This document shows, one piece after another, positions 2,955-19,772 of a stretch of DNA of 43,847 nt. The stretch lies in contig JADGPC010000021.1 in NCBI GenBank assembly GCA_017882645.1, positions 1-43,847 of the forward strand, written 5' to 3'. The notes beneath the pieces are model-generated. The model made no database searches. It had not been told where the DNA came from and was given only the letters and a program-made list of their open reading frames with translations. The DNA comes from Streptosporangiales bacterium (GTDB lineage: Bacteria > Actinomycetota > Actinomycetes > Streptosporangiales > Streptosporangiaceae). A program made the translations under genes and the position numbers. Position 1 is the first letter of the stretch. Each line of letters opens with the position of its first letter.

Positions 2955-2965
2955 AAGGATTTTCG

Positions 2966-4201
2966 ATGACTACCACTACCTATCCGCCGGAAACCAGACC
3001 TCGCCCGGCGCGCCCGCCTGGGCCGGACGACAACCAGGCCGAGACCGTCCCGGTGTCCGGGATCCTCGACACCGGCGGCAACCAGCCTTTCATCCGCACC
3101 GGCGGCTACCGGCGCAGTCCCGGCGACATCTACGTGCCGATGACCATGGTCAGGCAGGACGGCCTGCGCCCGGGCGATCACGTCGCCGGCGCCGCGCGCC
3201 CGGCTCGCCAGGGCGGCGGAGACGACCGGGCTGGCCGCGCCGTCAAGGAGAGCGACCGGCGCAGCGCGCTGGTCCGCGTCGACACCGTCAACGGCCTGCA
3301 GCCGGGGGCGGCCAGGGCGCGCCGCGACTTCGATCAGCTGACCCCGCTGTACCCGCAGGAGCGTCTCCTCCTTGAATCTGCCGGCGGCTCGCCGACCGCC
3401 CGGATCATCGATCTGGTCAGCCCGATCGGCAAAGGCCAGCGCGGGCTCATCGTGGCCCCGCCCAGGGCCGGCAAGACCATGGTGCTGCAGGCCATCGCGG
3501 CCGCTATCGCCGCCAATCACCCCGACGTGCACCTGATGGTCGTGCTGGTCGGCGAGCGGCCTGAGGAAGTCACCGACCTCAGGCGCTCCGTTCAAGGGGA
3601 AGTCATCTATTCCACGTTCGACCAGTCCGCCGACGAGCACATCACGACCGCCGAACTGGCCATCGAGCGGGCCAAGCGCCTGGTCGAGGCCGGCCGCGAC
3701 GTCGTCGTGCTCCTCGACTCGATCACCAGGCTCGGCCGCGCCTACAACCTGGCCGCGCCCGCGACCAGCCGCATCCTCGCCGGCGGGGTGGCAACGTCGG
3801 CCCTTCAGCCGCCGCGCAAGTTCCTCGGCGCGGCCAGGAACATCGAGGAGGGCGGCTCGCTGACGATCCTGTCCACCGCACTGGTCGAGACGGGCTCCCG
3901 GATGGACGACGTCTTCTTCGAGGAATTCAAGGGCACCGGGAACATGGAGCTGCGGCTCCGCCGGGACCTGGCCGAGAAGCGGCTGTACCCGGCGATCGAC
4001 GTGATGCCGTCCGGAACGCGCCGCGACGACCTGCTGATGACACCGCGGGAGCACGCGGCCGTCGCCAGCCTGCGCCGCGCGCTCGCCGCGCTCGACCCCC
4101 AGCAAGCACTGGAGCTGCTGCTCGACAAGACCCGCGAGACCTCATCGAACCTGGAGTTCCTGCACCAGATTCAGGCCAGCGCCCGGCCCCGCCGTTCGTG
4201 A
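2966..4201 (+). CDS. rho: Transcription termination factor Rho (compact form, 411 aa)
   Basis: Track ORF 2906..4201. ATG 2966 is preceded by GAAAGGA (2953-2959). It is collinear with E. coli Rho from the OB-fold RNA-binding domain onward ([20 protein letters not shown].. [18 protein letters not shown]). Other matches: [22 protein letters not shown] (Walker A), [57 protein letters not shown] and LYPAIDV. Confidence 0.92.
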
Positions 4202-4279
4202 GCGCGGCCCGGTTGTCCCCAGCCGGCCGACCTGCCATGCTGGCGAGCGTCATACGCGTGGACCTGAACGGGGAAAGCC

Positions 4280-4630
4280 ATGGCGGAGCGGTTCGCGACG
4301 ATCGAGGAGTACATCAGCTCGTTTCCTGACGATGTCCAGGAGATCCTCGAGGAAATCCGGCGCAGGATCCTGCGCGTCGTCCCGGCGGCCGGCCAGAAGA
4401 TCAGCTACCAGATGCCGACAGTGACCCTTCATGGCCGGAATCTCGTTCATTTCGGCGCGTGGAAGAAGCACATCGCCGTCTACCCCATGCCCGCGGACGA
4501 AGCCCTCAGGGCTGAGCTCGCGCCGTACCTGGCCGGCCAGAGCACCGCCCGGTTCCCGCTCTCCGAGCCGGTCCCCTATGACCTGATTGAGCGCCTGGTC
4601 GGGCAGCTGGCTGACCAGCGTGCTCAGTGA
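4280..4630 (+). CDS. DUF1801 (YdhG-like) domain protein
   Basis: 116-aa ORF, with GGGGAAAG before the ATG. IEEYISSFPDDVQEILEEIRRRI..ISYQMPT..GRNLVHFGAWKKHIAVYP is the usual DUF1801 pattern. Its stop overlaps the convergent giant ORF by 7 nt. Confidence 0.75.
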   Translation: MAERFATIEEYISSFPDDVQEILEEIRRRILRVVPAAGQKISYQMPTVTLHGRNLVHFGAWKKHIAVYPMPADEALRAELAPYLAGQSTARFPLSEPVPYDLIERLVGQLADQRAQ

Positions 4631-7600
4631 CCGGCTTCGGCGATCAGGCTGGCGAACAAACCGAGGAAGGTCGAGCCGTCCGATCCGTCGGGGTCGGCCA
4701 TGTCATGCGTGGCTGGCAGCACGCTCGTGTCGGCCGGGCCCGGCCACAGCGGCTGGATCTGCCCGAGGCCACCTTCCGCCAGCCAGTCGGTGACCAGCTG
4801 GAAGGCCGACGCCGGGTGGCCAAGCCGGAGAAAGTCCGCTGACGGGGAGCCGGCTCCCGGCGGCTGAATGGCCATTTTCGCGGCCATCAGGGCCCGCCGG
4901 AACGCCCGCACGTTCCTGGAATAGCCGTTGTCGAGCTGCCGGTCGAACGATGCCACGGCCGCCGAGCCGTCGAAGGTCATTCCGCGGCGGCGGAAATGGG
5001 TCGCTCCGGTCAGCGACCAGACGTCGTCGACGATGACGCTCGTGGTCCTGATGAAGGCCGTGCGGCCGGGGAAGCCGACCGGATGGAACACCGCGATCCG
5101 GTCCGGCGCCGCCTGGAGCAGCATCGCCACCGCCTCGGCCCGGGCCTGATAGTGCTCGCGTGACCAGCCGGGATAGTTCGCCGCGAAGTCCGCCTCACGC
5201 GGCACGCAGATGATCACTTTCAGGTTGGGATGATCACCCAGGCTGGTCACGATCTCAGCCACGAGGTCAACTTGCTCGTCGGTAGCCGGGCCGGCGGGGC
5301 GCGCGGTCCGCGCGAACTGAGGCGACTCGATATAGATCAGCTCGCGTGCCTCGCGCAGCGCCCGGCGCAGTGACCACTGGGCGTCCCTGAGGCCGTGCGC
5401 GGAGACCACGCACTCTCGTCGGATCTCGCCGATCATGCGGACGTCGTTGGCGGCGGTCACGGTCGGCGCCGGGATCCCGATGCCGGACGCGATCGAGTTC
5501 ACTGCCTGCTGGATGCTCGTGCCCGGGTCGGGCGGCGTGACCAGGCTCAATTCCGGTGTCTCGCACACCGCCGCGACGGTCTCCAGGAGCACCCCGACGC
5601 CGGTGTTCGTGGTCGAGGTGTCCGACGGCTCGTTGAAGTTGTCACCGTCCAGCGCGACGATCCAGCCGGGCGACGCGCTCGGGATGCCGGGGAACGGGAT
5701 GATCGGCTGAGCTCGGCGCATGGCGTGCCTGGCCAGGTCGTAGGCGAGGCCGCCGGTCACGTGGATGCCGGGCGCATGCAGGTCGGGTCCGGCGGGATGG
5801 CCGGGATTCCCGCTGGCGTGCAGGGCCGACCGGGTCTCGCGGGCCCACCGGCCGCCGGTCAGCACGGCCTCCCACAGCAAGGTCCCGCCCGGGGTACCGC
5901 CGGTCGCGCCGGTGGCCAGGATGGTCTCGAACCTGGCCATGGTCGGCAGCCGGGGCCCCTGCCGCGGCGCCGCGTCGGAGGCCAGTGCCCGCAGGAACGC
6001 CACCAGGTTCGACGGCGCGGTGCTCGGCGGCGTCACCGTGTCCGGGATTCCGAACAGCGGCGACGGCGCGATCGACTCGAAGTCGGGCGTCATGGCCGTC
6101 AGCGCGTTGCTGCCGGCGAACGAGTCCGCCGGGGCCGGCTCAGGACCCGCAGCGACGGCGGCGACGACGGCTCCCCACATCTTCCTGGCCCCGCTGCGCG
6201 GCGCCACCACGATATCCATCGTCAGGCTGGCCGGGCTCGGCCTCGGCTGCCCGCCGGCCAGCTGGAACGGATTTATCAGCAGGATCGACGTCGGCTGGCC
6301 AGCGTGAGCGATCGCCGCTCCCCCGTCGCCGCGCAGGAACGACGGCTCGGCGGTGATGGCCGGAATCGTGACATAGACCTGCGGGTAGATCCGGACATGC
6401 GCTCCGTCCGGGGCCTTGTCGGCGGCAATCGTCACGACGACGTCATCGCCCGAGGTGAAAGCGGCGGTGATGCCGTCCTTCGCCGACGCGGCCGAAGAGC
6501 CGAAGCCGGTACCCGGGTTCGGGGCCGGGAACGTCGGCCAGTGCGCGCCGGCCCCGGGCTGAGCGGGCATCGCGACGGTCCCGTCGATCGCCGGCGACAC
6601 CGCGAGGATCATGCCCTGCGACGGACGGGTCGCGACGGCCGAAGCCTGGCCGAGCGTATCCGGGCCGTCGGCCAGGTAGTCGATCACGATCTGGTCCCTG
6701 ACCTTCGGCAGCAGGTCGGCGGGGATGGCCTGGTCGTCGCCGGCGATGTCAAGGATCTCCGAGTCCGTCCGGTTGCCCAGCAGCGCCCAGCTGGTGTCCA
6801 CCACCATCAGGCGAAAGAATTTCTGGCTCAACGAGGGCGCGGGCGTTCCTGTTGTCGGCAGAGCCGGCGGGATGAGCCTGGTCCTGGCCAGGACGCCGTT
6901 GGTCGCCCAGCCCCAGCGGAGCCGGCCGCTGTCGGGCGCCGGGCTGGCGACGTCGATGCCGTCGCCGTCGTTCAGCGTGGTCAGCCCGCTGGCGGGAACT
7001 ATTCCGGTCTGATTCCCGCTGCCGTCGGTGGTGACCAGGGTGGCGGTATCAAGCGCTGGCTGGTACACGTCGCCGTGCGGGCTGGTGACGTGGACCAGTG
7101 TCGCTGACCCGAGGCCCGCGATGGACTGGACTCCCCCGGCGCCGCTCGCCGGGGACGTCGAGGTCCGGCCGGTCAGGCCGGTCAGCCAGGCCTGGAGGTC
7201 GGCGAAGACCGAGGCGACGTAAACCGGGTCGACGATCAGCCCCCGGCTGTCGTGGAACGAGACCGGGCCGCTGATCGGGGCCATCGCCTCGTCTGGCTCG
7301 AACCAGCGCGGCCCGGTGAAGCCCTGCGCGCCGCGGACAACCATGGCCTGCGGCACTGGCAGGATCAGCGGGCCGGTCCCGCTGCCGTACCTGGCCTGCA
7401 TCAGCGTCTCCAGCCGCCACGCGGCCGCGGGGTGAGTCCGGAAGACCGCGCAGGTTCCGCTCAGCGGCTCGCCGTCGGCCCCGGTGAAGGCCTGGGTCCG
7501 GCCGCCAGCGGCAAGCTTCAGCGAGACCTTGGCCCCGGCCTTGAAGGACTGCGCGGTCGTGTTGGCCGCGGCACGGGCGATGGTCAGGGAATCGCCGCTG

Positions 7601-7980
7601 CGGGCCGAGCACGAGACGATCTCCTGCTTCGGGCCGGCCGCATCGGACACGGTCAGCAGGACGTCGCCGCCCGCCGGGCTGGGAAATGCGTCGCCGTCAC
7701 CCGCCGCCACGGTCAGCGTCATGTCGCCAGCGCCGAGCTCGGCGGCGAGAGTCGAGGACACCGGGGAGAAAGCGAAGTCGAGTATGCCCCGGAAGGGCGC
7801 GTGCAGCGCGCCGATGCTCAGCGTCAGGGCGGCCGGGTCGTAGTCTGCGCCGGCCGGCGTGGCGTCGGCCCAGCGGGTGGACAGCGCGACGGTGGTCAGG
7901 CCGAGCGTGTCCAGCCCGTTGCCCTGAAGGTCCTGCTGGATGTCGGATGGCGTGATCGTGGTGATGGTCACCGCTGGCAT
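4624..7980 (-). CDS. Giant protein C (1118 aa), unknown function; C-terminal degenerate PLD/HKD-like fold
   Basis: Uninterrupted 1118-codon ORF. ATG 7980 lies 1 nt after the stop of the upstream ORF (TGAcATG). No N-terminal signal peptide (MPAVTITTITPSD). The N-terminal QEIVSCSARSGDSLTIARAAANTTAQSFKAGAKVSL resembles a motif seen in phage tail proteins. The C-terminus has RELIYIESPQF ... FIRTTSVIVDDVWSLTGATHFRRRGMTFDGS, a PLD-like arrangement with H and K replaced. Confidence 0.85.
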   Translation of the reverse strand: MPAVTITTITPSDIQQDLQGNGLDTLGLTTVALSTRWADATPAGADYDPAALTLSIGALHAPFRGILDFAFSPVSSTLAAELGAGDMTLTVAAGDGDAFPSPAGGDVLLTVSDAAGPKQEIVSCSARSGDSLTIARAAANTTAQSFKAGAKVSLKLAAGGRTQAFTGADGEPLSGTCAVFRTHPAAAWRLETLMQARYGSGTGPLILPVPQAMVVRGAQGFTGPRWFEPDEAMAPISGPVSFHDSRGLIVDPVYVASVFADLQAWLTGLTGRTSTSPASGAGGVQSIAGLGSATLVHVTSPHGDVYQPALDTATLVTTDGSGNQTGIVPASGLTTLNDGDGIDVASPAPDSGRLRWGWATNGVLARTRLIPPALPTTGTPAPSLSQKFFRLMVVDTSWALLGNRTDSEILDIAGDDQAIPADLLPKVRDQIVIDYLADGPDTLGQASAVATRPSQGMILAVSPAIDGTVAMPAQPGAGAHWPTFPAPNPGTGFGSSAASAKDGITAAFTSGDDVVVTIAADKAPDGAHVRIYPQVYVTIPAITAEPSFLRGDGGAAIAHAGQPTSILLINPFQLAGGQPRPSPASLTMDIVVAPRSGARKMWGAVVAAVAAGPEPAPADSFAGSNALTAMTPDFESIAPSPLFGIPDTVTPPSTAPSNLVAFLRALASDAAPRQGPRLPTMARFETILATGATGGTPGGTLLWEAVLTGGRWARETRSALHASGNPGHPAGPDLHAPGIHVTGGLAYDLARHAMRRAQPIIPFPGIPSASPGWIVALDGDNFNEPSDTSTTNTGVGVLLETVAAVCETPELSLVTPPDPGTSIQQAVNSIASGIGIPAPTVTAANDVRMIGEIRRECVVSAHGLRDAQWSLRRALREARELIYIESPQFARTARPAGPATDEQVDLVAEIVTSLGDHPNLKVIICVPREADFAANYPGWSREHYQARAEAVAMLLQAAPDRIAVFHPVGFPGRTAFIRTTSVIVDDVWSLTGATHFRRRGMTFDGSAAVASFDRQLDNGYSRNVRAFRRALMAAKMAIQPPGAGSPSADFLRLGHPASAFQLVTDWLAEGGLGQIQPLWPGPADTSVLPATHDMADPDGSDGSTFLGLFASLIAEAGH

Positions 7981-7981
7981 G

Positions 7982-10900
7982 TCAGCTCGCCGCCTTCTGC
8001 GCGAACTGGCCGTCGGGTCCGGTGATCCTGACCACGAAGCCGGCTACGGCAGCCGTCGTCACGACCGTATAGGTGTACGGCGGGCCGGCCAGGCTGCGGA
8101 CCAGGTAGGACTCCGGCACCGGCCCGATCGGCAGCCGGGCCGGCACGCTCGGCAGCGGGATCGTCAGCGCCGGCGGTGGCGGGAGCTGGAACGGCTGCTG
8201 CTTGACGCCGGTGACCCGCAGGACGTAAGGCCCGTCGAGCAGCGCGGTCACCGGCGAGGTGCTGGTGAACGTCAGGACGGTCTGGCGCGGCACGCCGGGA
8301 AGGACCCGCATGACCAGGTTCTCCAGGTCCGGCGGCGGATCGGCGGGGCCGGCCGGAATGGTCAGCAGCTGCGCGCCGGTCCGGCCGATCGGATCGGTGA
8401 TGCGGACCGCGAAGTCGACGGCGTCGGTGACGGCAGCGCGGCGGACGATGGCCAGGTAGGTGGTGACACCGAAGGACGTGCCGTAGATCCACACACCGGA
8501 CCCGGCCGCCGGCTGGGCCGTGCCGAGCGCGTCGAGCGTGGTGTCCAGGGACAGCAGGGGCGTCGTGCCGATGGGAGCGCCGGGCACCTTGGCGCGGACT
8601 GCTAGCTGATGCGGCCCGAGCGGCGTCCTGGGCACCGGCGAGGCGCAGGTCCACTCCAGATAGACATCGCCAGCACCTGGTCCGCCGCCCGTCAGCAGTC
8701 CGGGGATGGACGGGCCATTGGGCGGCGGCAGCACGACCCAGGCGGCGTTGCTCGCGGCGGAGCGCCCGGCCAGGCCGCCGCGGGTGGCATCATCGCCGGT
8801 CCACGCGGTGGCGCGGTACCAGACCCGCTTCCACGAGCCGGGCGGGGCGTCCGCCCCCTGGGCGGTAGAAATGTACGGGCCGTAGACCGGGTCGGGCACC
8901 TGGGTGACGGTCCATCCACCGCCGCTCGCCGTCAGCCGCGCCACCGGCGGCCCCATCGTGTCGAGTTCCCTGGCGGCGTCGTCGACGCGGACCCGGTGCA
9001 GGTCGATACGCACCGGCCGGGGACCAGGCCGGGTCGTGACCAGGACGCTCGCCGTGAAGGCGGGCGGCATGACGGTGGTGTCGAGCACGCGCTGGATCTC
9101 GATCGTCGGCGCGGCTGGCGTCGTGATGCGCGGAGCCGCGACCGCGATCAGCGAGTCGTCGGCAGCCGGGCCGCCGGGCCAGTCGCTCTCGACCTGGCCG
9201 GCGCTGACGCCGAGGACGACGTACAGGTGGATACCGGTCGACCCGCGCGGCAGGGTGACGTCGAGGCTGGACCCGGTCAGCGCGGTCGCGTTCAGCCGGG
9301 TGAACGGCCGCCGCAGCGGGTTCGCCAGGAACGCGTTCCTCAGGACGGTGAGCCGCTGGTCGAGCGTGTCCGACTGGGCAGGCTCCGGCAGGCCGCTCGC
9401 GTCGGCGAAGGACGCTTCGGTGGACTCGTAGACGTAATAGCCGGCCGCGTTCGGCTGGGCGGTCCAGCTGATCTGGACGTGACTCGACCCGGTCGCGTCC
9501 GGCAGGCTGCCGAGCAGCACGTGCGGCACGGGCACGACCGGAGGCCGCGGATCGCCGGTGGAGACGATCACGGGCTGGGCCGACCAGGGCGTCAGCCGCT
9601 GCGGAGCGATCTGCTCCTGGCCCTGCGCCCAGATCGCCATCCCGGCGAACCCGGTGGTCGCGAAGTCGATGGCCAGACCGGACATCGTGAGCCGGTACCG
9701 CCTGGTGTCGTCGCCTTGCGCGGAGCCGAATCCACCGGCCTGGTCTCCGTTGGCGGTCAGCGCGACCAGCACCGATCCGGGAGCCGACGGCACGTCCCCG
9801 GAGAAGGTCACGACGAGCGGCCCGCCGCCGCCGGCTAGCGACCGGTCGAGCCCGGCGGGAATCGTCAGCGAAGGCGGCGGGTCCCCGTGGCCGGTGGCGG
9901 GGTACATCAGTCCGGTGAACGTCACCTGCAGCGGCGAGCGAATCCGCCAGTCCCAGCAGAATTCCAGCTCCAGCGTGGTAGCACAGACCGACCCGCTGGC
10001 CGGCCCGGAGGGCGTCAGTGTCGCGCCCACGATCTGGACGGGCTCGAGGTCCGGCTGGAAGAGCGACTGGTCGACCGACGTCCATGGCGACCACTGGCCG
10101 TAGCTGTCGGCGATCGCCGCCCCGTACTTGACCTGCCGGGTGCCTGGGCTGGCCGGGATGCCGAGCTCGCGGTCGACTACGTTCAGCCGGAAGAACTCGG
10201 GGTCCGGTGTCTGCGTCGACTGGTTGATCGCGATCGGCCGGTAACCGCCGCTCGGCCGGGGATCCAGCAGCGTCACAGCGGGCTCGGCCGGGGCGATGCC
10301 CGCCCGGGCCGCCGCGAAGCTCGCCAGGCGTACTAGCTGCGAGGCCGCCGGCCGGTCCCAGCTCACCCGGATCGAGTCGCGCCAGTCGCCGTCGGCAGCG
10401 ATCGGCCGCAGGGCGCCCAGTTCGGCCGCGGCCATGTTCGCCGGGGCGTCCGGCGGGAACGCCGCGCCCGGGGCCGGGATCACGGCGGCGTAGTCCGCCG
10501 GCCCTGACGCGCCGTCCAGGCCGTTCTCCCAGTGCGCCGTGATCATGAAATCCTGCGGACCGCGGCCGACGATCCCGACCTCGCTCTGCGGCGCGTCGTA
10601 CGCGGTGCCGAAGCCGAGCGCCAGAGTGAGGAAGGGGTCGGCCGACGCGGCCATCAGGGTCATCGGCAGCGGAGCGAGCTGCGTCGTGCTGCCGCCGCCG
10701 CTCATCTGCTGGCCGGAAGAATTCTCCGGTGGCGGCAGCGGCACATTGATGACCTGCGCGGCCTGCTGATCGGGCGGGAACCCGGCCACAATGTCGTGCA
10801 GCGCGTCGAGCAGCTCATCGTTCACCTCGGTGACCAGTGCCGGATAACTGGGTGCGGCCCAGACCGGGGCGGGGTAGCCCGCGCCCAGGTCAGGTCCCCA

Positions 10901-11569
10901 CCCGAACGGGGGTGCGCCGCGCGCGAGCCGGTCAGCGGCGGCGGACTCGGCGTCGGTGAACGAACCGACGATCCCCTGCGGCTCGCCCTGCTTGCCCACG
11001 TCACCCCATCGCCCGAGGCTCACCGGCAGGCCAGCCAGCTCGATGAGCGTCCAGCCGGCGGAATTGGCGAGGCCGCCTGGACCGAGGCCGCGAACCGCGG
11101 TCACGCTGACGCCCGGCGCGACGAGCAGCCCGTCGATCACGGGCGCCGCCACCTCGACGGTGGATGTGCCCGGGTACAGCGTGGCGATGCCGCCGATGGT
11201 CGAGGCCGTCGGGCCGCCGCTGAACGTCAGCACGTATCCGCCGGCCGCGGGCACCTCCACGTCGACGCTGACCCTGGACATGGCCCCGTCCGGCCAGGTG
11301 ATCATGGTCAGCAGGTCGGCGAACAGGAGCTGCCGCGACGAGATCGTGAGGGTCTGCCAGGGCGGAGCCGCCGCGTGCGGCCGCGCCCAGATCCCGAACG
11401 GCTCGGTCGGCATGCCCATGCTCGCCTTGAGCATCCAGCGCAGCTCGAGTACCGAGCCGTACGGCTTGAGGTTCCCGCCCGGCAGCCCGAGCCGCTTCGC
11501 CACCGCGTCCCAGTTGACGATGGCGCCCTCGCCGTGGAAGAGGGCCGGGTCGACGACGTACGACGGCAT
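7982..11569 (-). CDS. Giant protein B (1195 aa), unknown function; FN3-like module
   Basis: Track ORF 7982..11590. Start placed at ATG 11569 (MPSYVVDP), 2 nt after the stop of protein A (TGAccATG), with GGAAGAGGTGGA upstream. No signal peptide. SSHVQISWTAQPNAAGYYVYEST (about 9176-9538) looks like a fibronectin-III-type module. Otherwise unrecognised. Confidence 0.85.
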   Translation of the reverse strand: MPSYVVDPALFHGEGAIVNWDAVAKRLGLPGGNLKPYGSVLELRWMLKASMGMPTEPFGIWARPHAAAPPWQTLTISSRQLLFADLLTMITWPDGAMSRVSVDVEVPAAGGYVLTFSGGPTASTIGGIATLYPGTSTVEVAAPVIDGLLVAPGVSVTAVRGLGPGGLANSAGWTLIELAGLPVSLGRWGDVGKQGEPQGIVGSFTDAESAAADRLARGAPPFGWGPDLGAGYPAPVWAAPSYPALVTEVNDELLDALHDIVAGFPPDQQAAQVINVPLPPPENSSGQQMSGGGSTTQLAPLPMTLMAASADPFLTLALGFGTAYDAPQSEVGIVGRGPQDFMITAHWENGLDGASGPADYAAVIPAPGAAFPPDAPANMAAAELGALRPIAADGDWRDSIRVSWDRPAASQLVRLASFAAARAGIAPAEPAVTLLDPRPSGGYRPIAINQSTQTPDPEFFRLNVVDRELGIPASPGTRQVKYGAAIADSYGQWSPWTSVDQSLFQPDLEPVQIVGATLTPSGPASGSVCATTLELEFCWDWRIRSPLQVTFTGLMYPATGHGDPPPSLTIPAGLDRSLAGGGGPLVVTFSGDVPSAPGSVLVALTANGDQAGGFGSAQGDDTRRYRLTMSGLAIDFATTGFAGMAIWAQGQEQIAPQRLTPWSAQPVIVSTGDPRPPVVPVPHVLLGSLPDATGSSHVQISWTAQPNAAGYYVYESTEASFADASGLPEPAQSDTLDQRLTVLRNAFLANPLRRPFTRLNATALTGSSLDVTLPRGSTGIHLYVVLGVSAGQVESDWPGGPAADDSLIAVAAPRITTPAAPTIEIQRVLDTTVMPPAFTASVLVTTRPGPRPVRIDLHRVRVDDAARELDTMGPPVARLTASGGGWTVTQVPDPVYGPYISTAQGADAPPGSWKRVWYRATAWTGDDATRGGLAGRSAASNAAWVVLPPPNGPSIPGLLTGGGPGAGDVYLEWTCASPVPRTPLGPHQLAVRAKVPGAPIGTTPLLSLDTTLDALGTAQPAAGSGVWIYGTSFGVTTYLAIVRRAAVTDAVDFAVRITDPIGRTGAQLLTIPAGPADPPPDLENLVMRVLPGVPRQTVLTFTSTSPVTALLDGPYVLRVTGVKQQPFQLPPPPALTIPLPSVPARLPIGPVPESYLVRSLAGPPYTYTVVTTAAVAGFVVRITGPDGQFAQKAAS

Positions 11570-11571
11570 GG

Positions 11572-14500
11572 TCAGTCCACCTCTTCCCACGGAGCGGCCG
11601 ACAGCGTCATGTCGAGCACGGGGTAGAAATCGTCGGTCGCGCCCGGCCCGTCGAGATACGGCTCGGTGTGCACGACCCGGCGCAGCGCCAGCGTGACCCG
11701 CTTCCCCCTGCTGCCCGGCTTGAGCGTGATCAGGGCCCGCTGCCCGCCTGGCGCGCGGACCACATAGTCGACTACGTCATCGCCGCCAGCCTGCGCCGCG
11801 AGCTCCAGCCACGGCTGCGGCATCAGCTCGTAGCGCTGGGCCGACATCGGCGGCGGTCCGGTCACGGCGGTCGGGATCGGCCGGTCGCGCCACATCGGCT
11901 CGGAAGCGTCGATCAGCAGCGCGGCCGGCTGGGGCGCGGGCGTTTCCGGATCCCAGAAGACGGTGACGCCTGGAGTCTTCGGTACCGCCACGGCGGGCAG
12001 CCCCGCGCCGCTGAGCGCGGTATCGAATTCCGCGCCCTGCGGGTCGCGCCAGGCGAAGGCCGGCCCGATCGCCTGGAGCTTGCCGGCGTCGTCGGCGTGC
12101 ACGCCGCGATGCGCCACCTTGCTCGTCCGGAACGACGCGGCGAAGTCGGCCGCGGTCGCGAACCCGCCGGTCGAGAACGAGCCGCGCCAGACCCGTACCC
12201 CGGGCGAGCCTTCGGGCGCCGCGACGTCGAGCATCTCGATGTCCAGCAGGTAGTCGGTGAACAGGTCAAGCGGGATCGGGATCGTCACCGACGAGTGCCT
12301 GATCCGCTCGCCGCTGACGTTCACGCACGGGAGGCTGGCCGAGGCAAGTGCCTGGGCTGAGTTCTCCCACGGCGACAGGATCGTGGCCGGAAGGAACTGC
12401 AGATTCGCCGGGGTCAGCGGGTACGGATGCGGCACGCCGGGCGGGCCGCTCACCGGAACGTAGGACGCTGGCCGCAGCCGGGCCTGGAGTTTCTTGCCGT
12501 AGGCGGCATACAGGTCGCCGACGTTGCTGGTGGCGAACACGACCCGGACGGTCTCCGAGCCGAAGAAATGGGGTTCGGCCTCGCCAGGCAGTGCCACCAG
12601 CACCCACGGGTCCAGCCTGGCGGGCGGCTGAGCATCAGTCGCGAACCAGAATGTCTGAAGCTGCCCGGTCACGGTCTGCTGATCCGATGGCGGTTTCCCC
12701 TGGGCACGTCTCTCCCGGCTCGCATCCCAGGTCACGCTGACCTGGTATTGCTGGCCGGGCACTAGGAGCGCGTTGTCGGAGCTGTTCAGCCCCAGCGCAT
12801 CGGAGAGTACCTGCTGCTTGCGCACCTGCTCGGTGGTGTCGTAGTCGGAGCGGGTTAGCTCCGAGCTCTTTAGTGCCTCGATGCCGCCGATGTAGAACGG
12901 CCGCAGCGAGATCTCGCGGCGGATCTGCCGCGACGGCGGCGGGCAGCCGATCTGTACTCGGTCCGCGCCAGGTGCCCCCTTGATCTCCACGAACACGGGC
13001 GTGTAGTCGTTTTTCGCGGCCATGGCGGCGAGATCCTCGAGCCCGATGACATCGAAGTGCCAGGGGCTGGCCGGTTCCAGCCAGGACGCCGGAAGGGCCA
13101 GCGGCGGAACGGCGTCGGCGCCGGTGACTACATGGCTGTCGTAGATCGTGTCACTGGCGTCGCTCGCGCAGACGACCACCGTCGCGCCGTACAGGAACCG
13201 GGTCGGGACCCACAGGTAGAAACGCGCGTACTCGAACGGGCCGAAGGTGAGGACGACCGCGTCGTCCAGCGGCCCGGGCTTGAACTGCCGCTGACTCCAG
13301 GCATCGAGGACCAGCGGCTCGCGGGTCTGGTCGCCGATATCGATCGGGCGCCCGTCGTCGAAGATTGGCGAGGCGAGGGCCCAGCCATAGCAGCCGTCGG
13401 TGGCCGGGGCGCCCGGATGAGGCGATCCGGGGAGCAGGCCGCCGCGGATCGCGCGGATCGGGTTGCCGGCGAGCGGCGGCTGGGTTCGGGCGGCTCTGCT
13501 TGCTGTTACCGCCCGCTGGGCGGGCGTGCGGCCGTCCGGGCAGGGCACGGTCGACACCTCGACCTCGGCGGGCACGATGCCGCGCATGCGGTCAGCGAAC
13601 TTGTCGCCGCAGCGCCATCGCTCGGTCACGGTCAGAGCCAGGTCGGGCGGCGCCGACCGGATCGTCCCCGGCGGGTCGGGGAACGGCTGGCCGAACGGCT
13701 CCCAGCCGGCGTCCGACGGACCGGCAAGCTGGTAGAAGAAGGTCCAGAAGACCGGGGCCGGCGGCGCGGCCGGGTCGCAGACCGTGCCCCATTTCTCGAT
13801 CGTGGTCTCGTCCAGGTAGACGCTGGATCCGACCGCTTTCGGAGTGGGGTCGGGAACCCAGCTCAGCAGCGCGAGCTGGGCCTCTAGCGCCAGATCGCCG
13901 GCCTTGGTGTTCCACCAGGTGGCGGGAGTAGCGCCGGCTGTGACCGGGCCGGTCAGGCTCACCGCGGTCAGCGTGTACCGATACCAGACGTCACCGCGCT
14001 GGACCCAGCCGTCGGCCGAAGCGTCGGGCGTACCGCCGATTGCCTGGCCGCTGAAGGTCAGCGCGGGGTCCTGCAGCGGCGGCATCGCGAGCATCAGGGC
14101 GGGCAAGATGTCGATCGGGACGACCGGAAGGTTCGGCGGCGAGCCGCCCGAGTCGGCCTCGACGGCGCTGGCCAGGCCGGAGTCGATCGGCTTGTCGACC
14201 CCTGTCCCGACCACCAGGGCAGGTGAACGGCTGATCAGCTTCACCGACGCGACCAGCGGCGGCGGATCGGGAACCGGGACCGAGTCCGAGCCAAGCGACA
14301 GGCTGACGCAGGCCGAGATGGAGAAGAACAGGAAGTCGACCTCGCCGCAGACTTGGCCGCTGATCTGGGCGACGTGGCCGCCCTGGCCGTCGTCGCCCAC
14401 GTTGACGTCCAGCTCCGCCCACACGCTGATGTCGACGATGAACAGGTGCAGCGTGCCGCGCACGCTCATAATGCCGGCCAGCCGGAACGGGGAAAAGCCG

Positions 14501-17500
14501 AGTACCGCGTCGAACCCGGCGGCGAGCTGTGCGTACAGCGGGCCGATGCCCCACTTGTAGGACACGTGCAGGCCGGTGGCGATCGAGAACCCGGTAACGG
14601 CCGGGAGATTGTCGTGGGCCGGGATCCCGCTGCCCGACAGCATGAGGTAGCCAGCTGCGTCGAAGACCTGGAAGACGCTGGCCTGGACCTGGCTGGAGTA
14701 CTCGCCGAGGTACAGATGCCAGTCGCTGGTGTCGTTGAAGTCGAAGAACGCCTCGACCGGGATCTTGATCTCGATCAGCGGGTCGATCTCGAAGTCGACC
14801 GACAGCCCGATCGTCAGCGTGCCCCGGCCGAAGTCTAGGTCGATCACGGCGAGGAACGTGCCCTCCGCGTCACCTTGCAGGTCAGGCAGCGCCGCCAGCA
14901 GGTTCGCCTTCATAACGAGCAGCAGGCGCGGGCCGGGCAGCTCGAGCAGGACCATGCCCTTGAGGTTGAACAGGATGTCGGTGCCCTCGGTGCCCAGCAG
15001 CGCGCCGACGCCGAACGCCCAGCTGCCCACCTTCGGCGTCCAGTACTGCGGGTTGGCGACGTCACCGTGGGCGGCCTTGAGCCAGGCCAGCTCGGGCGCC
15101 TCGATGCTGCCGGCCGGGATGATGCTCATGTCCCGTTCGAAATTCATCGCGAACAGGCCGATCAGGCCGTAGATGCCCAGGCCCGAGTCAGCCAGCGGGA
15201 TGGCCACGGGGAAGTCGACCTCGAGTGAGGCCCGGACGCCGGTCGCCGGGCCGCCGTTGGCCGCGGAGATCTGGGCGATGGCCAGCGTCGCCGCGATCCT
15301 GATGTTGACCGGGGTGATCGTCAGGTCGAGCGCGCCCTTGATGACCGAATCGCCCTGAGCATCGGCGCCGACCTCCGCGTAGCCCTTGCCGGACAGGGCA
15401 CCGGGGATGTCCACGCTCGCGCCGAACGCCGTCAGCTCGGGAGGGCCACCAGGGCTGAGGTTCAGCCTGACCCGCGCCCGGTCGATCGACACGACTCCGA
15501 GGTCGATCGCGACGCCGAGGTCGATCTCGGCGTAGAACGGGTTGTTTCGCGAGAGACGGGCACCGAGGATCTTCAGGATCTTGTCGAACGGGTCGTGCAC
15601 CTGGATCGCGCCGGGCTTCGAGGCGTCGATCGTGTAGCCCTTGGCGGAGTCGAAGTACGGCCGGAACTGGAATTTCGGCTGGCCGGGCGGATTGCCGATG
15701 ATGAACCCGATCGCCTTGTAGCGGACCACCAGCGGCGTCTGGCGCGGGATCGTGATGATGTCGAGGCCAGCGATCGAGATGTCGGCCGAGATCGCCGTCT
15801 CGAGGTCGACCAGGATCAGGACCTGGTCGCCGTCGGGGCGGGCCTGCAGGTCGAACTCACCGCCGTACCAGATCACCCGCTCGACCCGGAACCATGGCAG
15901 CGCGGCCATGCCGGCGACGACAGCGAATCCGGCCGCGGTAACAGCCAGCTCGACTTCCGCGCCGTCGGCGGCCGCCGCTCCGGCCGAGTCGGCGATCAGC
16001 GGCCAGAAGGCGATCCCCAGGCCGAGGAAGTCCAGGCCGTAGCCGGGATCGGGCAGCGGATCAGGGGCCGGCGGCAGCCAGCCGATCATCTTGAGGCCGT
16101 CCTTATCGGCCGGGTCCGCGCCGAAATAGCCGCTGACCGTGATGACGTCGGTTGCGTCGTCGATCTGGACGACCAGCCGGATATCGATAATGCCGTCGGC
16201 CGGATTCTGGCTGCCGACGTCGCCCCATTGCGGGATCTGGGCATTCGGCACCCCGCCGCGGGCCAGCTGGTTCTCGCTCGGGGTCTGGATGTCGAACTTG
16301 CCGGAGATCTCGCAGGCGACGAAGTGGTCGCGGACGATCCGGACCTTCGCGTCGACCTTCTTGAACCAGCTGGGAGACGGCGGCGGGGTGGCGGTGGCCG
16401 GGTTGTCGGGGACCGGCACCGGCTGGGCCGGCTCGGCGGCTGGCCGGGTCACCGTGCCCGTCGTGGTCGTCCCGGGCGCCGGCTGCGGCGACCACGTTGC
16501 CTCGGCCTTCCAGAACGTCCGGCGGACGTCGGTGCCCGGACCCTGGCTCGGCCAGCTGGTCATGTCCGGGGCGGCGGTCACGTTCGTGAAGGTCGTGCCC
16601 TGGTACTTCCCGATGATCGCCTGCAAGCCCGTCGCGCGATTGGCGGCGAGCTGGTTGTTGTATGTCCAGGCGCTGCTGGCCGGACCGGTGTCGTCGCCGG
16701 CCTCGTAGCTGGCGTAGCCCTTGATCGTGATGGCGGTATCGGCGGCCAGATCCTTCAGCAGCGGGGCCAGCGCGGTCGCGACGTCGCTGCCGCCCGGCCA
16801 CGGGGCGGTCAGGCCCTGGTCGGCGGCTGGCTCGGTGCGGGTGTTGCCGGGAATAGTCGAGTAGGCAGCCGCATCGTCGACGTTCGGCTTGGGATGGTCA
16901 AAGCGGTAGTAGGCGGTGAAAGTGCCGATGCCGGCCGCTGCCCCGGGCACCGTGGCGGTGACGCTGACGGTGTCACCGGGGGCGCAGTCGACGGTGGTCG
17001 TCGGGCCGGTGCCGGCCGCCGAGCCGTTCACGGTCCACTGGGCACCGGCGGCGGCCGACGGGTCGGCGTTCACGCCGATCGTCGCCTGGCTGGACGTCTG
17101 CGAGATGAGCGTGAGCTGGGGCTGCTCGACCGGGAGGCCGTTCTGGGTGACGGACGTCGTCTGCAACTGGACGCCGGGGTTATCAGGGGTCGGCGTCGTG
17201 CCGGGCGGCGGCGGGGCCGAGGCGGGCTTCAGATTCGCGGTGATGGTCAGCTCGGTCTTGATTGCTCCCGGCTGGGAGCCGGTCGCCGAGACCTTGATCG
17301 TCATCGAGGTGCCGGTGCCGAAGTCCACGTCGAATAGCCGGCCAGGTGCGTCGGCACTGCCGCCGATCTGCGCGCTGGCCGTGTACGGGGTCAGGCCGCC
17401 GTCGATGTCGACGACCATCCGCGTCTTCGCGGGCAGCGCGACGGTTGCCGTGTCGTCGCCGGTCCTGGTGATCGCAAAGCATCGGCCGGCCGCGTCGTAG

Positions 17501-18513
17501 AACCGGGCGCTGACGGTGACCGGTCCAGAGCCCTGGTCGACGACCGCGAGCTCGAAGTCGCCGGTGACGCCGGCCGACGGGCCGAAGCCGATCAGCAGGT
17601 TGGTCGCGCTGGCGTCGATAGCCAGGCCGCTCGCTCCGCTCGGCGCGACGTACAGGCGCAGTTCGGGGAAGTAGACGCCCATCCAGCTGTCGTCGAAGCC
17701 GAACTGCGCCAGGACGTCGGGTGGGGTGGAGCCTTCGGAAAGGTCGAGGGTCGCGGTGCGGAACCCGATGCCGACGGTGTCGGACGAGCCGATGAAGGCG
17801 TACGGCGGGTCCATCGTGATCAGGTCGGCGACGCCGATGTCGTCGCGGTCGTCCAGGCCGCTCGCGCCCAGCGACAGGAGGTCGGCGCTAAGCGGGTCAG
17901 AGACCTGGGATCCCTGGGTCAGGCGCACCTTGATCTTCGGAAGGGTGATCTTTACCTGGGCGTGCTGCGGGTCCTCGGTGAGGATGCCGCTCGGGTCGAG
18001 CCTGGCTCCGCGCAGGAATGGAGGTCGCAGCACGATCGTGGTCAGCAGCAGGTCCAGCGTGAAGTCTGTGGACGGGTAGTCCGAGGGCGGCGGATCGGCC
18101 GTGTTCGCGTCGTACGCGGCCAGCACCGCCGCCGCGGTGGCGAAGCTGCCGCTGCCGCCGATCGCGGCGACGGCCGATGCCACCTTCTGTGATACCTCGC
18201 GCGGCGCGCTCAGCTCAAAGTCGAGCTCGGCATCCCGCACGTCGATCCACGGGTCGCGCCGTCCGGCGTCGCTGGCCGGGTGCCCTTCGGTGTTCTCGGC
18301 ATTCACGCCGAAGGTCATCGTCGTGGGGTCGACGTACGGGCTCACGTCCCCGCTGAATCGCGCGACGCCCCGGATCACGATGCCGAGATCATCGGCGGTG
18401 ACCGTGTACTCGCTGACGTAAATGACAGAAAGCGCCGCGTGCCACTGCCCGAAAGAGTCACCCTGAAGAACATATGGGGTGATCAGGTCTAGAAGCGCGA
18501 GATCATACGGCAT
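11572..18513 (-). CDS. Giant protein A (2313 aa), unknown function; embedded OmpA/MotB-like motif, Pro-rich linkers, hydrophobic segment, long beta-rich core
   Basis: Uninterrupted 2313-codon ORF. ATG 18513 lies 10 nt after GAAGGA. No signal peptide (MPYDLALLDLITPY). ATALAPLLKDLAADTAITIKGYASYEAGDD...YNNQLAANRATGLQAII (16594-16791) fits the OmpA C-terminal-like pattern. Pro-rich linkers sit at about aa 430-447 and 677-715. A hydrophobic stretch GLDFLGLGIAFWPLI...AVTAAGFAVVAGMAALPWF sits at 15886-16038. Confidence 0.85.
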   Translation of the reverse strand: MPYDLALLDLITPYVLQGDSFGQWHAALSVIYVSEYTVTADDLGIVIRGVARFSGDVSPYVDPTTMTFGVNAENTEGHPASDAGRRDPWIDVRDAELDFELSAPREVSQKVASAVAAIGGSGSFATAAAVLAAYDANTADPPPSDYPSTDFTLDLLLTTIVLRPPFLRGARLDPSGILTEDPQHAQVKITLPKIKVRLTQGSQVSDPLSADLLSLGASGLDDRDDIGVADLITMDPPYAFIGSSDTVGIGFRTATLDLSEGSTPPDVLAQFGFDDSWMGVYFPELRLYVAPSGASGLAIDASATNLLIGFGPSAGVTGDFELAVVDQGSGPVTVSARFYDAAGRCFAITRTGDDTATVALPAKTRMVVDIDGGLTPYTASAQIGGSADAPGRLFDVDFGTGTSMTIKVSATGSQPGAIKTELTITANLKPASAPPPPGTTPTPDNPGVQLQTTSVTQNGLPVEQPQLTLISQTSSQATIGVNADPSAAAGAQWTVNGSAAGTGPTTTVDCAPGDTVSVTATVPGAAAGIGTFTAYYRFDHPKPNVDDAAAYSTIPGNTRTEPAADQGLTAPWPGGSDVATALAPLLKDLAADTAITIKGYASYEAGDDTGPASSAWTYNNQLAANRATGLQAIIGKYQGTTFTNVTAAPDMTSWPSQGPGTDVRRTFWKAEATWSPQPAPGTTTTGTVTRPAAEPAQPVPVPDNPATATPPPSPSWFKKVDAKVRIVRDHFVACEISGKFDIQTPSENQLARGGVPNAQIPQWGDVGSQNPADGIIDIRLVVQIDDATDVITVSGYFGADPADKDGLKMIGWLPPAPDPLPDPGYGLDFLGLGIAFWPLIADSAGAAAADGAEVELAVTAAGFAVVAGMAALPWFRVERVIWYGGEFDLQARPDGDQVLILVDLETAISADISIAGLDIITIPRQTPLVVRYKAIGFIIGNPPGQPKFQFRPYFDSAKGYTIDASKPGAIQVHDPFDKILKILGARLSRNNPFYAEIDLGVAIDLGVVSIDRARVRLNLSPGGPPELTAFGASVDIPGALSGKGYAEVGADAQGDSVIKGALDLTITPVNIRIAATLAIAQISAANGGPATGVRASLEVDFPVAIPLADSGLGIYGLIGLFAMNFERDMSIIPAGSIEAPELAWLKAAHGDVANPQYWTPKVGSWAFGVGALLGTEGTDILFNLKGMVLLELPGPRLLLVMKANLLAALPDLQGDAEGTFLAVIDLDFGRGTLTIGLSVDFEIDPLIEIKIPVEAFFDFNDTSDWHLYLGEYSSQVQASVFQVFDAAGYLMLSGSGIPAHDNLPAVTGFSIATGLHVSYKWGIGPLYAQLAAGFDAVLGFSPFRLAGIMSVRGTLHLFIVDISVWAELDVNVGDDGQGGHVAQISGQVCGEVDFLFFSISACVSLSLGSDSVPVPDPPPLVASVKLISRSPALVVGTGVDKPIDSGLASAVEADSGGSPPNLPVVPIDILPALMLAMPPLQDPALTFSGQAIGGTPDASADGWVQRGDVWYRYTLTAVSLTGPVTAGATPATWWNTKAGDLALEAQLALLSWVPDPTPKAVGSSVYLDETTIEKWGTVCDPAAPPAPVFWTFFYQLAGPSDAGWEPFGQPFPDPPGTIRSAPPDLALTVTERWRCGDKFADRMRGIVPAEVEVSTVPCPDGRTPAQRAVTASRAARTQPPLAGNPIRAIRGGLLPGSPHPGAPATDGCYGWALASPIFDDGRPIDIGDQTREPLVLDAWSQRQFKPGPLDDAVVLTFGPFEYARFYLWVPTRFLYGATVVVCASDASDTIYDSHVVTGADAVPPLALPASWLEPASPWHFDVIGLEDLAAMAAKNDYTPVFVEIKGAPGADRVQIGCPPPSRQIRREISLRPFYIGGIEALKSSELTRSDYDTTEQVRKQQVLSDALGLNSSDNALLVPGQQYQVSVTWDASRERRAQGKPPSDQQTVTGQLQTFWFATDAQPPARLDPWVLVALPGEAEPHFFGSETVRVVFATSNVGDLYAAYGKKLQARLRPASYVPVSGPPGVPHPYPLTPANLQFLPATILSPWENSAQALASASLPCVNVSGERIRHSSVTIPIPLDLFTDYLLDIEMLDVAAPEGSPGVRVWRGSFSTGGFATAADFAASFRTSKVAHRGVHADDAGKLQAIGPAFAWRDPQGAEFDTALSGAGLPAVAVPKTPGVTVFWDPETPAPQPAALLIDASEPMWRDRPIPTAVTGPPPMSAQRYELMPQPWLELAAQAGGDDVVDYVVRAPGGQRALITLKPGSRGKRVTLALRRVVHTEPYLDGPGATDDFYPVLDMTLSAAPWEEVD

Positions 18514-18523
18514 TCCGGCGTAT

Positions 18524-18575
18524 TCCTTCGAGACCGCTCGTCCGACATATAAAGATCGCGGCTGGTCTCGAAGGA
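18524..18575 (-). promoter_or_regulatory. Perfect 12-bp inverted repeat enclosing an AT-rich 28-nt spacer; it overlaps the RBS of giant ORF A
   Basis: 18524-18535 tccttcgagacc and 18564-18575 ggtctcgaagga are exact reverse complements. On the reverse-strand mRNA the 3' arm GGUCUCGAAGGA contains the only Shine-Dalgarno-like element (GAAGGA), 10 nt before AUG 18513. The spacer holds the most AT-rich stretch of the intergenic region (catataaagat). Confidence 0.55.
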
Positions 18576-18903
18576 CGGTACTCGACCCGGTCGGTCCCCC
18601 CGCAGGTCAGGCGGCTCGGCTTAGCGCCTCGCCACCCGCCTGCAGTCAGTTTCCGCCGCCCTTAAAGCAGGGGCAAGCCGATTCTTGAATATCGCTCGAT
18701 GTCCACGCGGACCGTTGCCGCGTTTATTACGCGGCGGCCCAATTGCCCGCCGGTCAGTACCCGTAACCGCTGGGGCTTGACGACTTCGACGTCGGGCTGG
18801 ACGCGGGCGCGGTACCGGCGACCGTGACCTCATGCCAGACGCCGCCTGAGATGTTCAGGCCGTTGCCGGAGGCCTGCCCGGGCGACTTGTCGCCCTTATA
18901 GGT

Positions 18904-19656: not shown

Positions 19657-19664
19657 CGCGCAGG

Positions 19665-19772
19665 CCGATGCTGCACGGCGCGCGTGGACAGTCCGACCTG
19701 CACCATCACAACGTGCTCGCCGCGATGCGAGAGCCATGGCTCGTCATCGATCCCAAGCCCTATCTGGACCAG
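19665..19772 (+). pseudogene. Relic of an aminoglycoside/antibiotic phosphotransferase (APH-type kinase) gene
   Basis: The frame of track ORF 19491..19910 reads MLHGARGQSDLHHHNVLAAMREPWLVIDPKPYLD. This matches the catalytic-loop pattern HGDLHxxNVL...PWLxIDPK of APH/streptomycin-kinase-like enzymes. No homologous sequence is seen upstream (inside the GNAT gene) or downstream (the convergent hydrolase gene). Confidence 0.4.

Follow-up and report, generated by a model that had tools for sequence, protein, structure and literature searches.

Genomic organization of the A-B-C cassette

A contig of a Streptosporangiales bacterium (JADGPC010000021.1, GenBank assembly GCA_017882645.1; positions 1 to 43,847, here called the window, GC content 71%) carries three consecutive giant genes on its reverse strand, which we name A, B and C. 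Gene A (11572-18513) encodes a giant DUF6603 protein of 2313 amino acids (aa), gene B (7982-11569) a beta-rich protein of 1195 aa with no family match, and gene C (4624-7980) a protein of 1118 aa that joins a beta-rich N-terminal half to a C-terminal, two-lobed phospholipase D (PLD) fold. A and B are separated by 2 nucleotides (nt) (GTGGAC TGA cc ATG CCG, that is, TGAccATG) and B and C by 1 nt (GCGAGC TGA c ATG CCA, or TGAcATG). B is translationally coupled to A, and C is coupled to B. These sizes and spacings verify the initial annotation of this DNA, which had described three translationally coupled open reading frames (ORFs). The ORF lister starts B at a GTG codon (11590, giving 1202 aa). 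Homologue alignment favors the ATG at 11569; B homologues from three phyla all start MP-Y or MA-F. An RBS-like (ribosome-binding site) sequence, GAAGGAA, lies 9 nt 5' of the A start codon. The invariant C-terminal A-P-W-E-E of A is encoded by TGGGAAGAGG (11575-11591, reverse strand), which doubles as a Shine-Dalgarno-like sequence for B, and the conservation of these residues could reflect a protein-docking tail, a coupling signal, or both.

All three proteins are strongly acidic, with a net charge of about -105 for A. No Sec, Tat or lipoprotein-like N-terminus is present in A, B or C (no basic n-region, hydrophobic h-region or twin-arginine), and searches of the three proteins for Walker A, YD (Y.YD) and C-terminal LPXTG motifs found none; C contains a single internal LPTTG at aa 374, which is not conserved. 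The motif check thereby agrees with the initial annotation, which had reported no such signals, no LPXTG, no YD repeats and no embedded ATPase gene.

Conservation and spread of the cassette

A scan with the B profile of one genome per species (185,579 species) recovered 55 loci from about ten phyla. In 53 of the 55, as far as the contig extends, A, B and C occur in the same order, on the same strand and with tight spacing, the two exceptions being an Arthrobacter locus with A and B only and one divergent Solirubrobacterales locus. The former (Arthrobacter sp. 260, locus L026, 13630 onwards) has no C gene after B and is a natural two-gene form within the main family. From A stop to B start the median distance is 1 nt (at most 20 nt in 43 of 44 loci), and from B stop to C start it is 7 nt (at most 20 nt in 42 of 49). 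Frame breaks are few, all in draft or metagenome-derived assemblies, and are taken to be sequencing errors. When sequence identity to the respective window protein is compared across 33 loci, A, B and C vary together (r = 0.96-0.98); the three therefore travel and diverge together. The ratio of nonsynonymous to synonymous substitution (dN/dS) of C is 0.19 against a 92%-identical relative, which places C under purifying selection. To the initial annotation the three genes had looked like one obligately co-expressed unit, and it had asked whether they co-occur in this order across Actinomycetota. Synteny in nearly all loci, reaching beyond the Actinomycetota, and co-divergence support an obligate linkage of the three.

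Among the candidates scored, A has 238 database relatives at E <= 1e-5. These are full-length (2270-2470 aa), share 45-93% identity across phyla, and belong to the Acidobacteriota, Myxococcota, Bacillota (Paenibacillus), Actinomycetota (Arthrobacter) and Alpha-, Beta- and Gammaproteobacteria, where they are named "hypothetical", "large repetitive protein" or "DUF6603". The B-profile scan adds Nitrospirota, Gemmatimonadota, Planctomycetota, Chloroflexota and Abditibacteriota. C has 156 relatives, some of them in Nostoc and Pseudomonas. A search of 50,697 phage genomes and of 2.9 million IMG/VR contigs turned up no relative of A or B, and the plasmid matches are chromid-type replicons with distant variants.

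Nothing else travels with the three genes. The Paenibacillus, Edaphobacter and Chromobacterium contexts each hold A, B and C and have nothing else in common. In the flanks of 56 loci no ORF cluster recurs beyond close relatives, and a search for an accessory gene kept with the cassette (for immunity, an ATPase, lysis or regulation) found none. When 128 flanking ORFs, taken from about 40 loci, were scanned against Pfam, 199 families were recorded, each in at most two ORFs, with no enrichment of integrase, defense, secretion, lysis or phage functions.

The nearest named relatives of the window cassette are in a Gammaproteobacteria metagenome-assembled genome (MAG), Ferrovum and Acidobacteria, and other Actinomycetota are among its most distant relatives. 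Because the nearest named relatives lie in other phyla, the sequence comparison points to horizontal transfer of the window cassette followed by amelioration of codon usage. GC content at third codon positions (GC3) of A, B and C is 0.90-0.91, equal to that of flanking genes, and codon preferences of cassette and flanks correlate at 0.97-0.99. The native codon usage noted initially is thus upheld, but the accompanying view that the genes are no obvious recent import applies only to codon usage, the family being plainly horizontally mobile. We conclude that A-B-C is a genuine module of three genes, which are co-transcribed, coupled and inherited together; selection maintains the module, and it moves horizontally between lineages.

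Protein A

All features of A, B and C described here and below are on the reverse strand of the window. The only Pfam match of A is DUF6603 (PF20248) at aa 993-1228 (34.2 bits against a cut-off of 27 bits, E = 1.4e-8). The conserved N-terminal domain (aa 1-430; 17224-18513) has no family match and shares 49-65% mean identity with 40 homologues; Pfam likewise found nothing in the N- and C-terminal parts of A in 62 homologue segments, 31 of them covering aa 1-430. A variable module between Pro-rich linkers follows (aa 431-715; 16369-17223; 32-40% identity). It contains one or more immunoglobulin (Ig)-like beta-sandwiches, seen as marginal PDB profile matches, and an OmpA-like peptidoglycan-binding motif (aa 583-636; 16606-16767) with the sequence ITIKGYAS...YNNQLAANRA.

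The A family profile matches the OmpA-like PDB entry 6u83 (E = 0.026) over an aligned core of GYAS...YNxxLxxRRA. Pfam OmpA (PF00691) was detected at E <= 0.01 in five of 44 homologue segments of the A variable regions (best 1.3e-4), and at the equivalent position of the 32%-identical Rhizobium tropici A' protein at E = 0.002, below the cut-off. These pieces are individually weak but concordant, and together lend weak support to the OmpA/MotB-like motif proposed in the initial annotation; the window's own A has no Pfam OmpA match above threshold.

Peptidoglycan-binding domains also appear elsewhere in the family. PG_binding_1 forms an N-terminal extension of A in two close homologues (P0004 and P0006), and in a Solirubrobacterales MAG (locus L055) the gene that lies 13 nt upstream of A' (2883-4499, forward strand) encodes a 539-aa protein whose C-terminal domain is PG_binding_1 (E = 1e-8). 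That A' is short (1756 aa) and has no Ig/OmpA module. Such domains thus appear to have been recruited in three independent ways. Because PG_binding_1 is fused to A in some relatives and encoded by a separate gene in another, wall binding probably belongs to the function of the system.

According to the conservation profile, the conserved core of A spans aa 716-1640. Within it, a conserved hydrophobic or amphipathic stretch (aa 825-871; 15901-16041), modeled as three helices, has a family-mean Kyte-Doolittle value of 1.66 at aa 853-871, confirming the hydrophobic segment noted initially. The DUF6603 core itself (aa 875-1428; 14230-15891) consists of about 35 long (10-18 aa) antiparallel beta strands. 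Beyond the conserved core lies a hypervariable loop (aa 1641-1720; 13354-13593) with identity of 0.28-0.30 and a mean of 23-43 residues inserted; insertions reach about 120 aa, and the segment measures 126-233 aa among full-length homologues. The C-terminal region (aa 1720-2313) ends in the invariant A-P-W-E-E tail, and both the N- and the C-terminal peptides of A are strongly conserved. An alpha/beta domain at aa 1714-1904 (12802-13374) was predicted with a predicted local distance difference test score (pLDDT) above 90 and had no fold match among the Foldseek matches listed.

Residues 715-1914 were modeled with AlphaFold2 from 71 sequences, at a mean pLDDT of 74 and a predicted template modeling score (pTM) of 0.43. 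In order, the model comprises a small beta domain, the three helices, the approximately 35 strands and well-predicted alpha/beta domains. Foldseek comparison of the model with the PDB returned the FimD and PapC ushers, LptD, Deinococcus SlpA, porins and the ApoB100 lipid belt at template modeling (TM) scores of 0.09-0.2, and no Tc, RHS or baseplate structure was among its top 50 matches. An identity of A as an outer-membrane barrel was considered and rejected, as TM scores of only about 0.1-0.2 denote a generic barrel or belt likeness. On the model, the A core is read as a very large amphipathic beta-meander without membership of a barrel family.

Protein B

Pfam gave no match for B or for 37 B homologues, and PDB searches by sequence and by profile found no relative of B. 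One beta-sandwich-like domain occurs twice in tandem over the last 365 aa (hhalign of aa 831-1000 against aa 1001-1195, probability 92%). All-against-all hhalign detected no other internal repeats and no paralogy among A, B and C. The FN3-like module of the initial annotation, a likeness seen at aa 690-800, finds no statistical support in the Pfam, PDB or homologue scans.

Protein C

Pfam, PLDc included, gave no match for C. An AlphaFold2 model built from 63 sequences (pLDDT 85, pTM 0.89) places a two-lobed PLD-like domain at about aa 640-1118 (4627-6063), with boundaries approximated from alignment lengths and secondary structure. Foldseek aligned the model with PLD structures in the PDB over 390-617 columns (E = 3e-11 to 1e-5, probability 1.0, TM scores 0.23-0.44). 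These include plant PLD-alpha, human PLD1 and PLD2, the Pseudomonas aeruginosa type VI secretion system (T6SS) effector PldA (Tle5a), Streptomyces PLD and poxvirus F13; entries 6kz9, 6oho, 7wdk and 1f0i (E = 3e-11 to 5e-7) are among the matches.

The most conserved stretch of C is a degenerate second "HKD" motif (aa 978-1000; 4981-5049), R978-T-T980-S-V-I-V-D985-D-V-W-S-L-T-G992-A-T-H995-F-R-R-R-G, present in 47 of 47 aligned homologues. In all homologues Arg978, Thr980 and His995 stand where the catalytic His, Lys and Asn would be; T980, H995 and R997-G1000 are invariant, the homologue alignment holds no invariant Lys, and the window C has no H.K....D match. A relative whose HKD motif is intact, a Mycetohabitans PLD, fixes the motif register: its H-S-K...G-S-T-N aligns on the R-T-T...G-A-T-H of C (hhalign probability 94%). 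From the secondary-structure register, the first-lobe equivalent may lie at R683-x-E685. Model and alignment together identify the C-terminal domain as a catalytically degenerate PLD-fold pseudoenzyme, so that the dead PLD fold named in the initial annotation is now well founded. Judging from the invariant Arg/His cluster, C may have kept a pocket that accommodates a ligand that is anionic or bears phosphate.

Near its N-terminus, C contains a phage tail-fiber N-terminal (virion-attachment) domain as a 90-aa optional insert (aa 72-161; 7498-7767). This segment matches PHROG tail-fiber families (E = 4e-18 for 6427, 7.5e-17 for 8469, down to 2e-10 for others) and superimposes on dozens of BFVD tail fibers with a root-mean-square deviation of 1-3 Å, mostly at 16-44% identity, and the C profile matches PDB entry 8jov chain 1 (E = 5e-11). 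The phage-tail-like motif of the initial annotation is accordingly genuine. The BFVD matches are confined to the N-terminal segment, about 85-215 columns, and aa 170-640 of C have no match among the PDB and BFVD matches listed. The domain is gapped in 54% of 46 C homologues, whose forms without it measure about 1030 aa, and it is considered accessory for this reason.

The DUF6603 superfamily and its third partners

Relatives of the A core (aa 715-1640), counted as 50%-identity cluster representatives, number 1025 at E <= 1e-3, of which 328 reach E <= 1e-30. Deep variants were found by a plasmid and chromid search. Rhizobium tropici CIAT 899 encodes a full A'-B'-C' set that is about 32% identical and keeps the R-x-T motif, and Paracoccus aminophilus encodes A' and B' only (B' against B, hhalign probability 95%). 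A megaplasmid of Mycetohabitans endofungorum carries a related trio in a different gene order (locus L060, 5201-18222), consisting of a 1322-aa protein, a 509-aa PLD and a 2496-aa DUF6603 protein with a ConA-like lectin domain. The 509-aa PLD has a canonical active-site motif (Pfam PLDc, E = 3e-6) and is homologous to the C-terminal part of C. This trio is flanked by transposases and toxin-antitoxin genes, and its host is an endofungal symbiont.

On Haloferax mediterranei plasmid pHME322 (locus L062, 9856-22969), an 1858-aa DUF6603 protein, a 1370-aa B homologue (hhalign probability 93% over 704 columns) and a 1142-aa Baseplate_J protein (E = 2e-12) are encoded in a row, the last being unrelated to B or C. 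A MoxR ATPase gene follows. This locus, in a host without peptidoglycan, is the sole link of the superfamily to contractile-tail baseplates. Pursuit of the baseplate-J lead reached a dead end, with a single relative of the Haloferax protein on a 4.8-kb contig. Because the Paracoccus, Haloferax and Mycetohabitans variants differ in the third gene, sequence comparison indicates a conserved core of A (DUF6603) and B with an exchangeable third partner.

Flanking genes of the window cassette

A divergent intergenic region of 390 nt (18514-18903) between A and a GNAT acetyltransferase gene (18904-19656, forward strand; Pfam E = 4.5e-8) is the presumed A-B-C promoter region. No Rfam element or riboswitch was found in it, and no sigma-70-type consensus was found in the scanned stretch 4100-19000. 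A 327-aa ORF upstream of A (18754-19737, reverse strand) was considered as a fourth component and rejected; it is not conserved with the cassette, has a GC3 of 0.75 against about 0.90, belongs to no family and lies opposite the GNAT gene. It is probably a shadow ORF, and as it is not part of the unit, A is the first gene of the operon. Downstream, the unit is ended by a small DUF1801 gene (4280-4621, forward strand) convergent with C. The same convergent arrangement is seen in the close relative L059 (13351-13701); the DUF1801 gene is not kept with the cassette in other phyla.

Neighbors of the cassette in the window comprise GNAT, glycoside hydrolase, LacI, Lhr, DUF1801, Rho-like and major facilitator superfamily (MFS) transporter genes, and no sheath, tube, spike, gp25, gp6(J), gp7 or tape-measure gene is nearby. 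The Rho-like gene (2906-4201, forward strand) lies between the cassette and the MFS transporter gene and encodes a 431-aa protein with a Rho RNA-binding domain and an ATP-synthase alpha/beta nucleotide-binding domain; it was not called in the corresponding stretch of L059, a 92%-identical relative. One further ORF (29764-33423, forward strand) contains a DUF222 and HNH endonuclease region (aa 68-489) and a complete acyl-CoA dehydrogenase (aa 635-1168), and is probably two genes in one frame rather than a fusion. The window looks actinobacterial, by its GC content of 71% and by its DUF222-HNH and Lhr genes, which are probably typical of Actinomycetota.

Proposed function

Of the functions considered, the one we favor, tentatively and at somewhat short of an even chance, is the broad one that A-B-C forms a new autonomous complex acting on the cell envelope. 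A, B and C would come together in about equal amounts, forming a large and acidic assembly whose substrate is the envelope rather than a cytoplasmic one. A would supply peptidoglycan binding through its OmpA-like module, and its hydrophobic helices and giant amphipathic beta sheet may interact with or insert into a membrane. B might serve as a beta-sandwich scaffold or adaptor. The PLD-fold pocket of C would no longer carry out phosphodiesterase chemistry and, lined as it is with invariant Arg and His, would most likely bind an envelope ligand that carries phosphate, for instance a phospholipid head group, teichoic acid or a lipid-linked phosphate. The cassette is accompanied by no export signal and by no ATPase, immunity or secretion gene, so the complex would have to reach peptidoglycan by a non-classical route, either release by lysis or self-insertion.

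Several observations weigh against this proposal. A, B and C lack a signal peptide and a strong transmembrane helix, and no secretion system is partnered with them, which would also allow a purely cytoplasmic role, and peptidoglycan-binding domains might equally sense cytoplasmic muropeptides. The OmpA-like call in the window's own A falls below the Pfam threshold, and the pTM of 0.43 and Foldseek TM scores of 0.09-0.2 for the A core amount to a generic beta-meander likeness only. A single A/B/C complex is deduced from genetics only. The dead PLD argues against an enzymatic toxin payload. With no export signal and no clear transmembrane segment, the "envelope-spanning" apparatus of the initial annotation remains speculation. 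Its alternative, a "phage-derived apparatus", is weakened, as it rests on a 90-aa domain missing from roughly 54% of C homologues and A and B have no phage or IMG/VR relatives.

A more specific form of the envelope-acting complex is possible, and we regard it as less probable than the broad one. In it, A-B-C would be a tripartite machine that operates without a secretion system, in which a conserved, wall-docking A+B chassis, present in Bacteria and haloarchaea alike, uses its giant single-chain beta sheet to breach or remodel membranes, and a plug-in third subunit (dead PLD, live PLD or a baseplate-J-like protein) sets the target or activity. Such a machine would be an independent analogue of Tc toxins or tailocins.

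The likelihoods that we attach to the different explanations overlap and are not meant to add up to a whole; the two discussed in this paragraph are narrower versions of the broad envelope-acting reading. An analogue of a Tc-type toxin is unlikely, if worth entertaining. In such a system A would be the binding or pore component and B and C the payload or adaptor, released by lysis against eukaryotic grazers, fungi or bacteria. Gene order and sizes are the same (approximately 2300, 1200 and 1100 aa), signal peptides, immunity gene and ATPase are similarly missing, and the cassette is patchily distributed and horizontally acquired in soil and water bacteria, including Paenibacillus, Chromobacterium and the endofungal Mycetohabitans, whose variant retains an intact HKD PLD. 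The T6SS phospholipase toxin PldA is among the structural neighbors of C, and the variable loops and Ig-like modules of A recall receptor-binding proteins. However, no Pfam match to TcA, TcB, TcC or RHS families and no YD motif was found, no Tc or RHS structure is in the Foldseek top 50 of either the A core or C, the PLD of C is degenerate at its catalytic positions, the C-termini show conservation and not polymorphism, and peptidoglycan binding is unfit for a eukaryotic target. We consider it more doubtful still that A-B-C is a resident envelope structure of its producer, such as a wall-anchored scaffold, adhesin or transport device, exported by an unrecognized signal in the A N-terminus and anchored to the cell's own peptidoglycan. 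The repeated recruitment of peptidoglycan-binding modules, the resemblance of the A beta-meander to outer-membrane barrels, the strongly conserved terminal peptides of A and the annotation of one homologue as "outer membrane protein" would all fit. None of the three proteins has a Sec, Tat or lipoprotein signal, however, and a cassette that occurs in diderms and in monoderms (Paenibacillus, Arthrobacter), with A and B also in an archaeon without peptidoglycan, is hard to fit to one envelope architecture.

Two further explanations depart from the envelope-acting reading. Anti-phage defense by abortive infection, with A sensing wall damage or muropeptides and the complex killing the cell by membrane disruption, appears improbable. 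Like most defense systems, A-B-C is a self-contained, mobile, patchily distributed multi-gene cassette; in Edaphobacter it adjoins an integrase fragment, SSB and ArdC, and the Mycetohabitans variant sits among transposases and toxin-antitoxin genes. The tail-fiber domain of C could serve as a decoy or sensor, and PLD-fold proteins do occur in defense systems, as in DISARM DrmC. Set against this, no PADLOC model matches A, B or C at E <= 0.1, the 128 flanking ORFs are not enriched in defense, restriction-modification or mobile-element functions, Pfam and NCBIfam scans revealed no nuclease, helicase, ATPase, TIR, SIR2 or similar effector domain, and about 4600 aa of mostly beta-sandwich protein would be atypical in size. 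The least likely of the explanations is that A-B-C is what remains, after domestication, of a phage tail or contractile-injection baseplate, reduced to wedge- or fiber-like proteins without sheath or tube. Its attraction lies in the genuine tail-fiber attachment domain at aa 72-161 of C, in the Baseplate_J protein (E = 2e-12) encoded as third gene beside A' and B' in Haloferax, and in the large beta-sandwich mosaics, which are like baseplate and fiber proteins. But the fiber domain is missing from about 54% of C homologues, the PHROGs matches are confined to that one domain, A and B have no relatives in the phage genomes or in IMG/VR, no sheath, tube, spike, gp25 or tape-measure gene is nearby, and neither B nor C is related to the J-like protein of Haloferax.

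Comparison with known systems

The initial annotation had found no recognizable family or characterized system at this locus, and the searches concur. Pfam, NCBIfam, PADLOC, PDB, Foldseek and the literature yielded only the DUF6603 label and domain-level matches. The NCBIfam scan of A, B and C returned nothing significant, PADLOC-DB v2 had no match to A, B, C or the upstream ORF at E <= 0.1, and PDB sequence and profile searches of the three proteins produced only 8jov, for the fiber domain, and the marginal OmpA-like match. Fold models cover C and aa 715-1914 of A. No paper mentioning DUF6603, PF20248, IPR046538 or the locus tag VK98_15360 was found, and keyword searches gave the same result.

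Known elements in A-B-C are at the domain level only: an OmpA-like module, a PLD fold and a tail-fiber N-domain. A exceeds the gathering threshold of DUF6603, and most homologues carry PF20248; this Pfam family is a domain label with no function, structure or paper attached, and the three-gene context and the B and C partners appear in no description found. A aa 583-636 share the GYAS...YNxxLxxRRA core with OmpA/MotB/Pal domains, but unlike OmpA-like periplasmic anchors the motif sits mid-protein in a 250-kDa chain without a signal peptide. With the PLD (HKD) superfamily, C shares the two-lobed fold of its C-terminal 480 aa or so. It differs in having Arg978, Thr980 and His995 in place of the catalytic residues and in the fusion of this domain to a beta-rich N-terminal half of 600 aa without a match. 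With phage tail fibers it has only the 90-aa N-terminal attachment domain in common; there is no matching shaft or receptor-binding part, and no phage genes surround the cassette. Contractile injection systems differ in their baseplate genes, which are missing from the cluster, Baseplate_J occurring only in the distant Haloferax variant.

The closest parallel in lifestyle, as proposed here for A-B-C, is with the ABC (Tc) toxins, to which there is no detectable homology. TcA-TcB-TcC are likewise three consecutive giant genes in large-to-small order, without signal peptide, immunity gene or ATPase, and are likewise spread horizontally among Gram-negative and Gram-positive bacteria. A has neither the VRP1 nor the TcdA/TcdB pore Pfam domains, however, and aa 715-1914 show no Tc fold. 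RHS, SpvB and TcdB_toxin Pfam matches are missing from B, C and the 37 B homologues, and the C model matches PLDs, not RHS shells. Where Tc toxins have receptor-binding and neuraminidase-like domains, A-B-C has peptidoglycan-binding modules instead. As it does not show the defining features of Tc, contractile injection, RHS, HKD or PADLOC systems, we rate A-B-C as lying outside every known kind, with a function that we infer.

About 14 kb of coding capacity has been kept intact and moved as a block between at least ten bacterial phyla, and its retention at such cost implies that it brings a strong and portable advantage under selection. Repeated recruitment of peptidoglycan-binding domains, together with the giant beta sheet and the repurposed PLD, suggests a new way to engage or attack envelopes without a known secretion apparatus. 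If confirmed, this would provide a function for DUF6603, a family of more than 1000 clusters at 50% identity, and, because live-HKD and dead-HKD versions sit in sister systems, a clean case of the conversion of an enzyme to a binding module. It would also add A-B-C as a new entry to the large self-contained weapons, defenses and envelope machines, beside Tc toxins, contractile injection systems, Rhs and contact-dependent inhibition (CDI).

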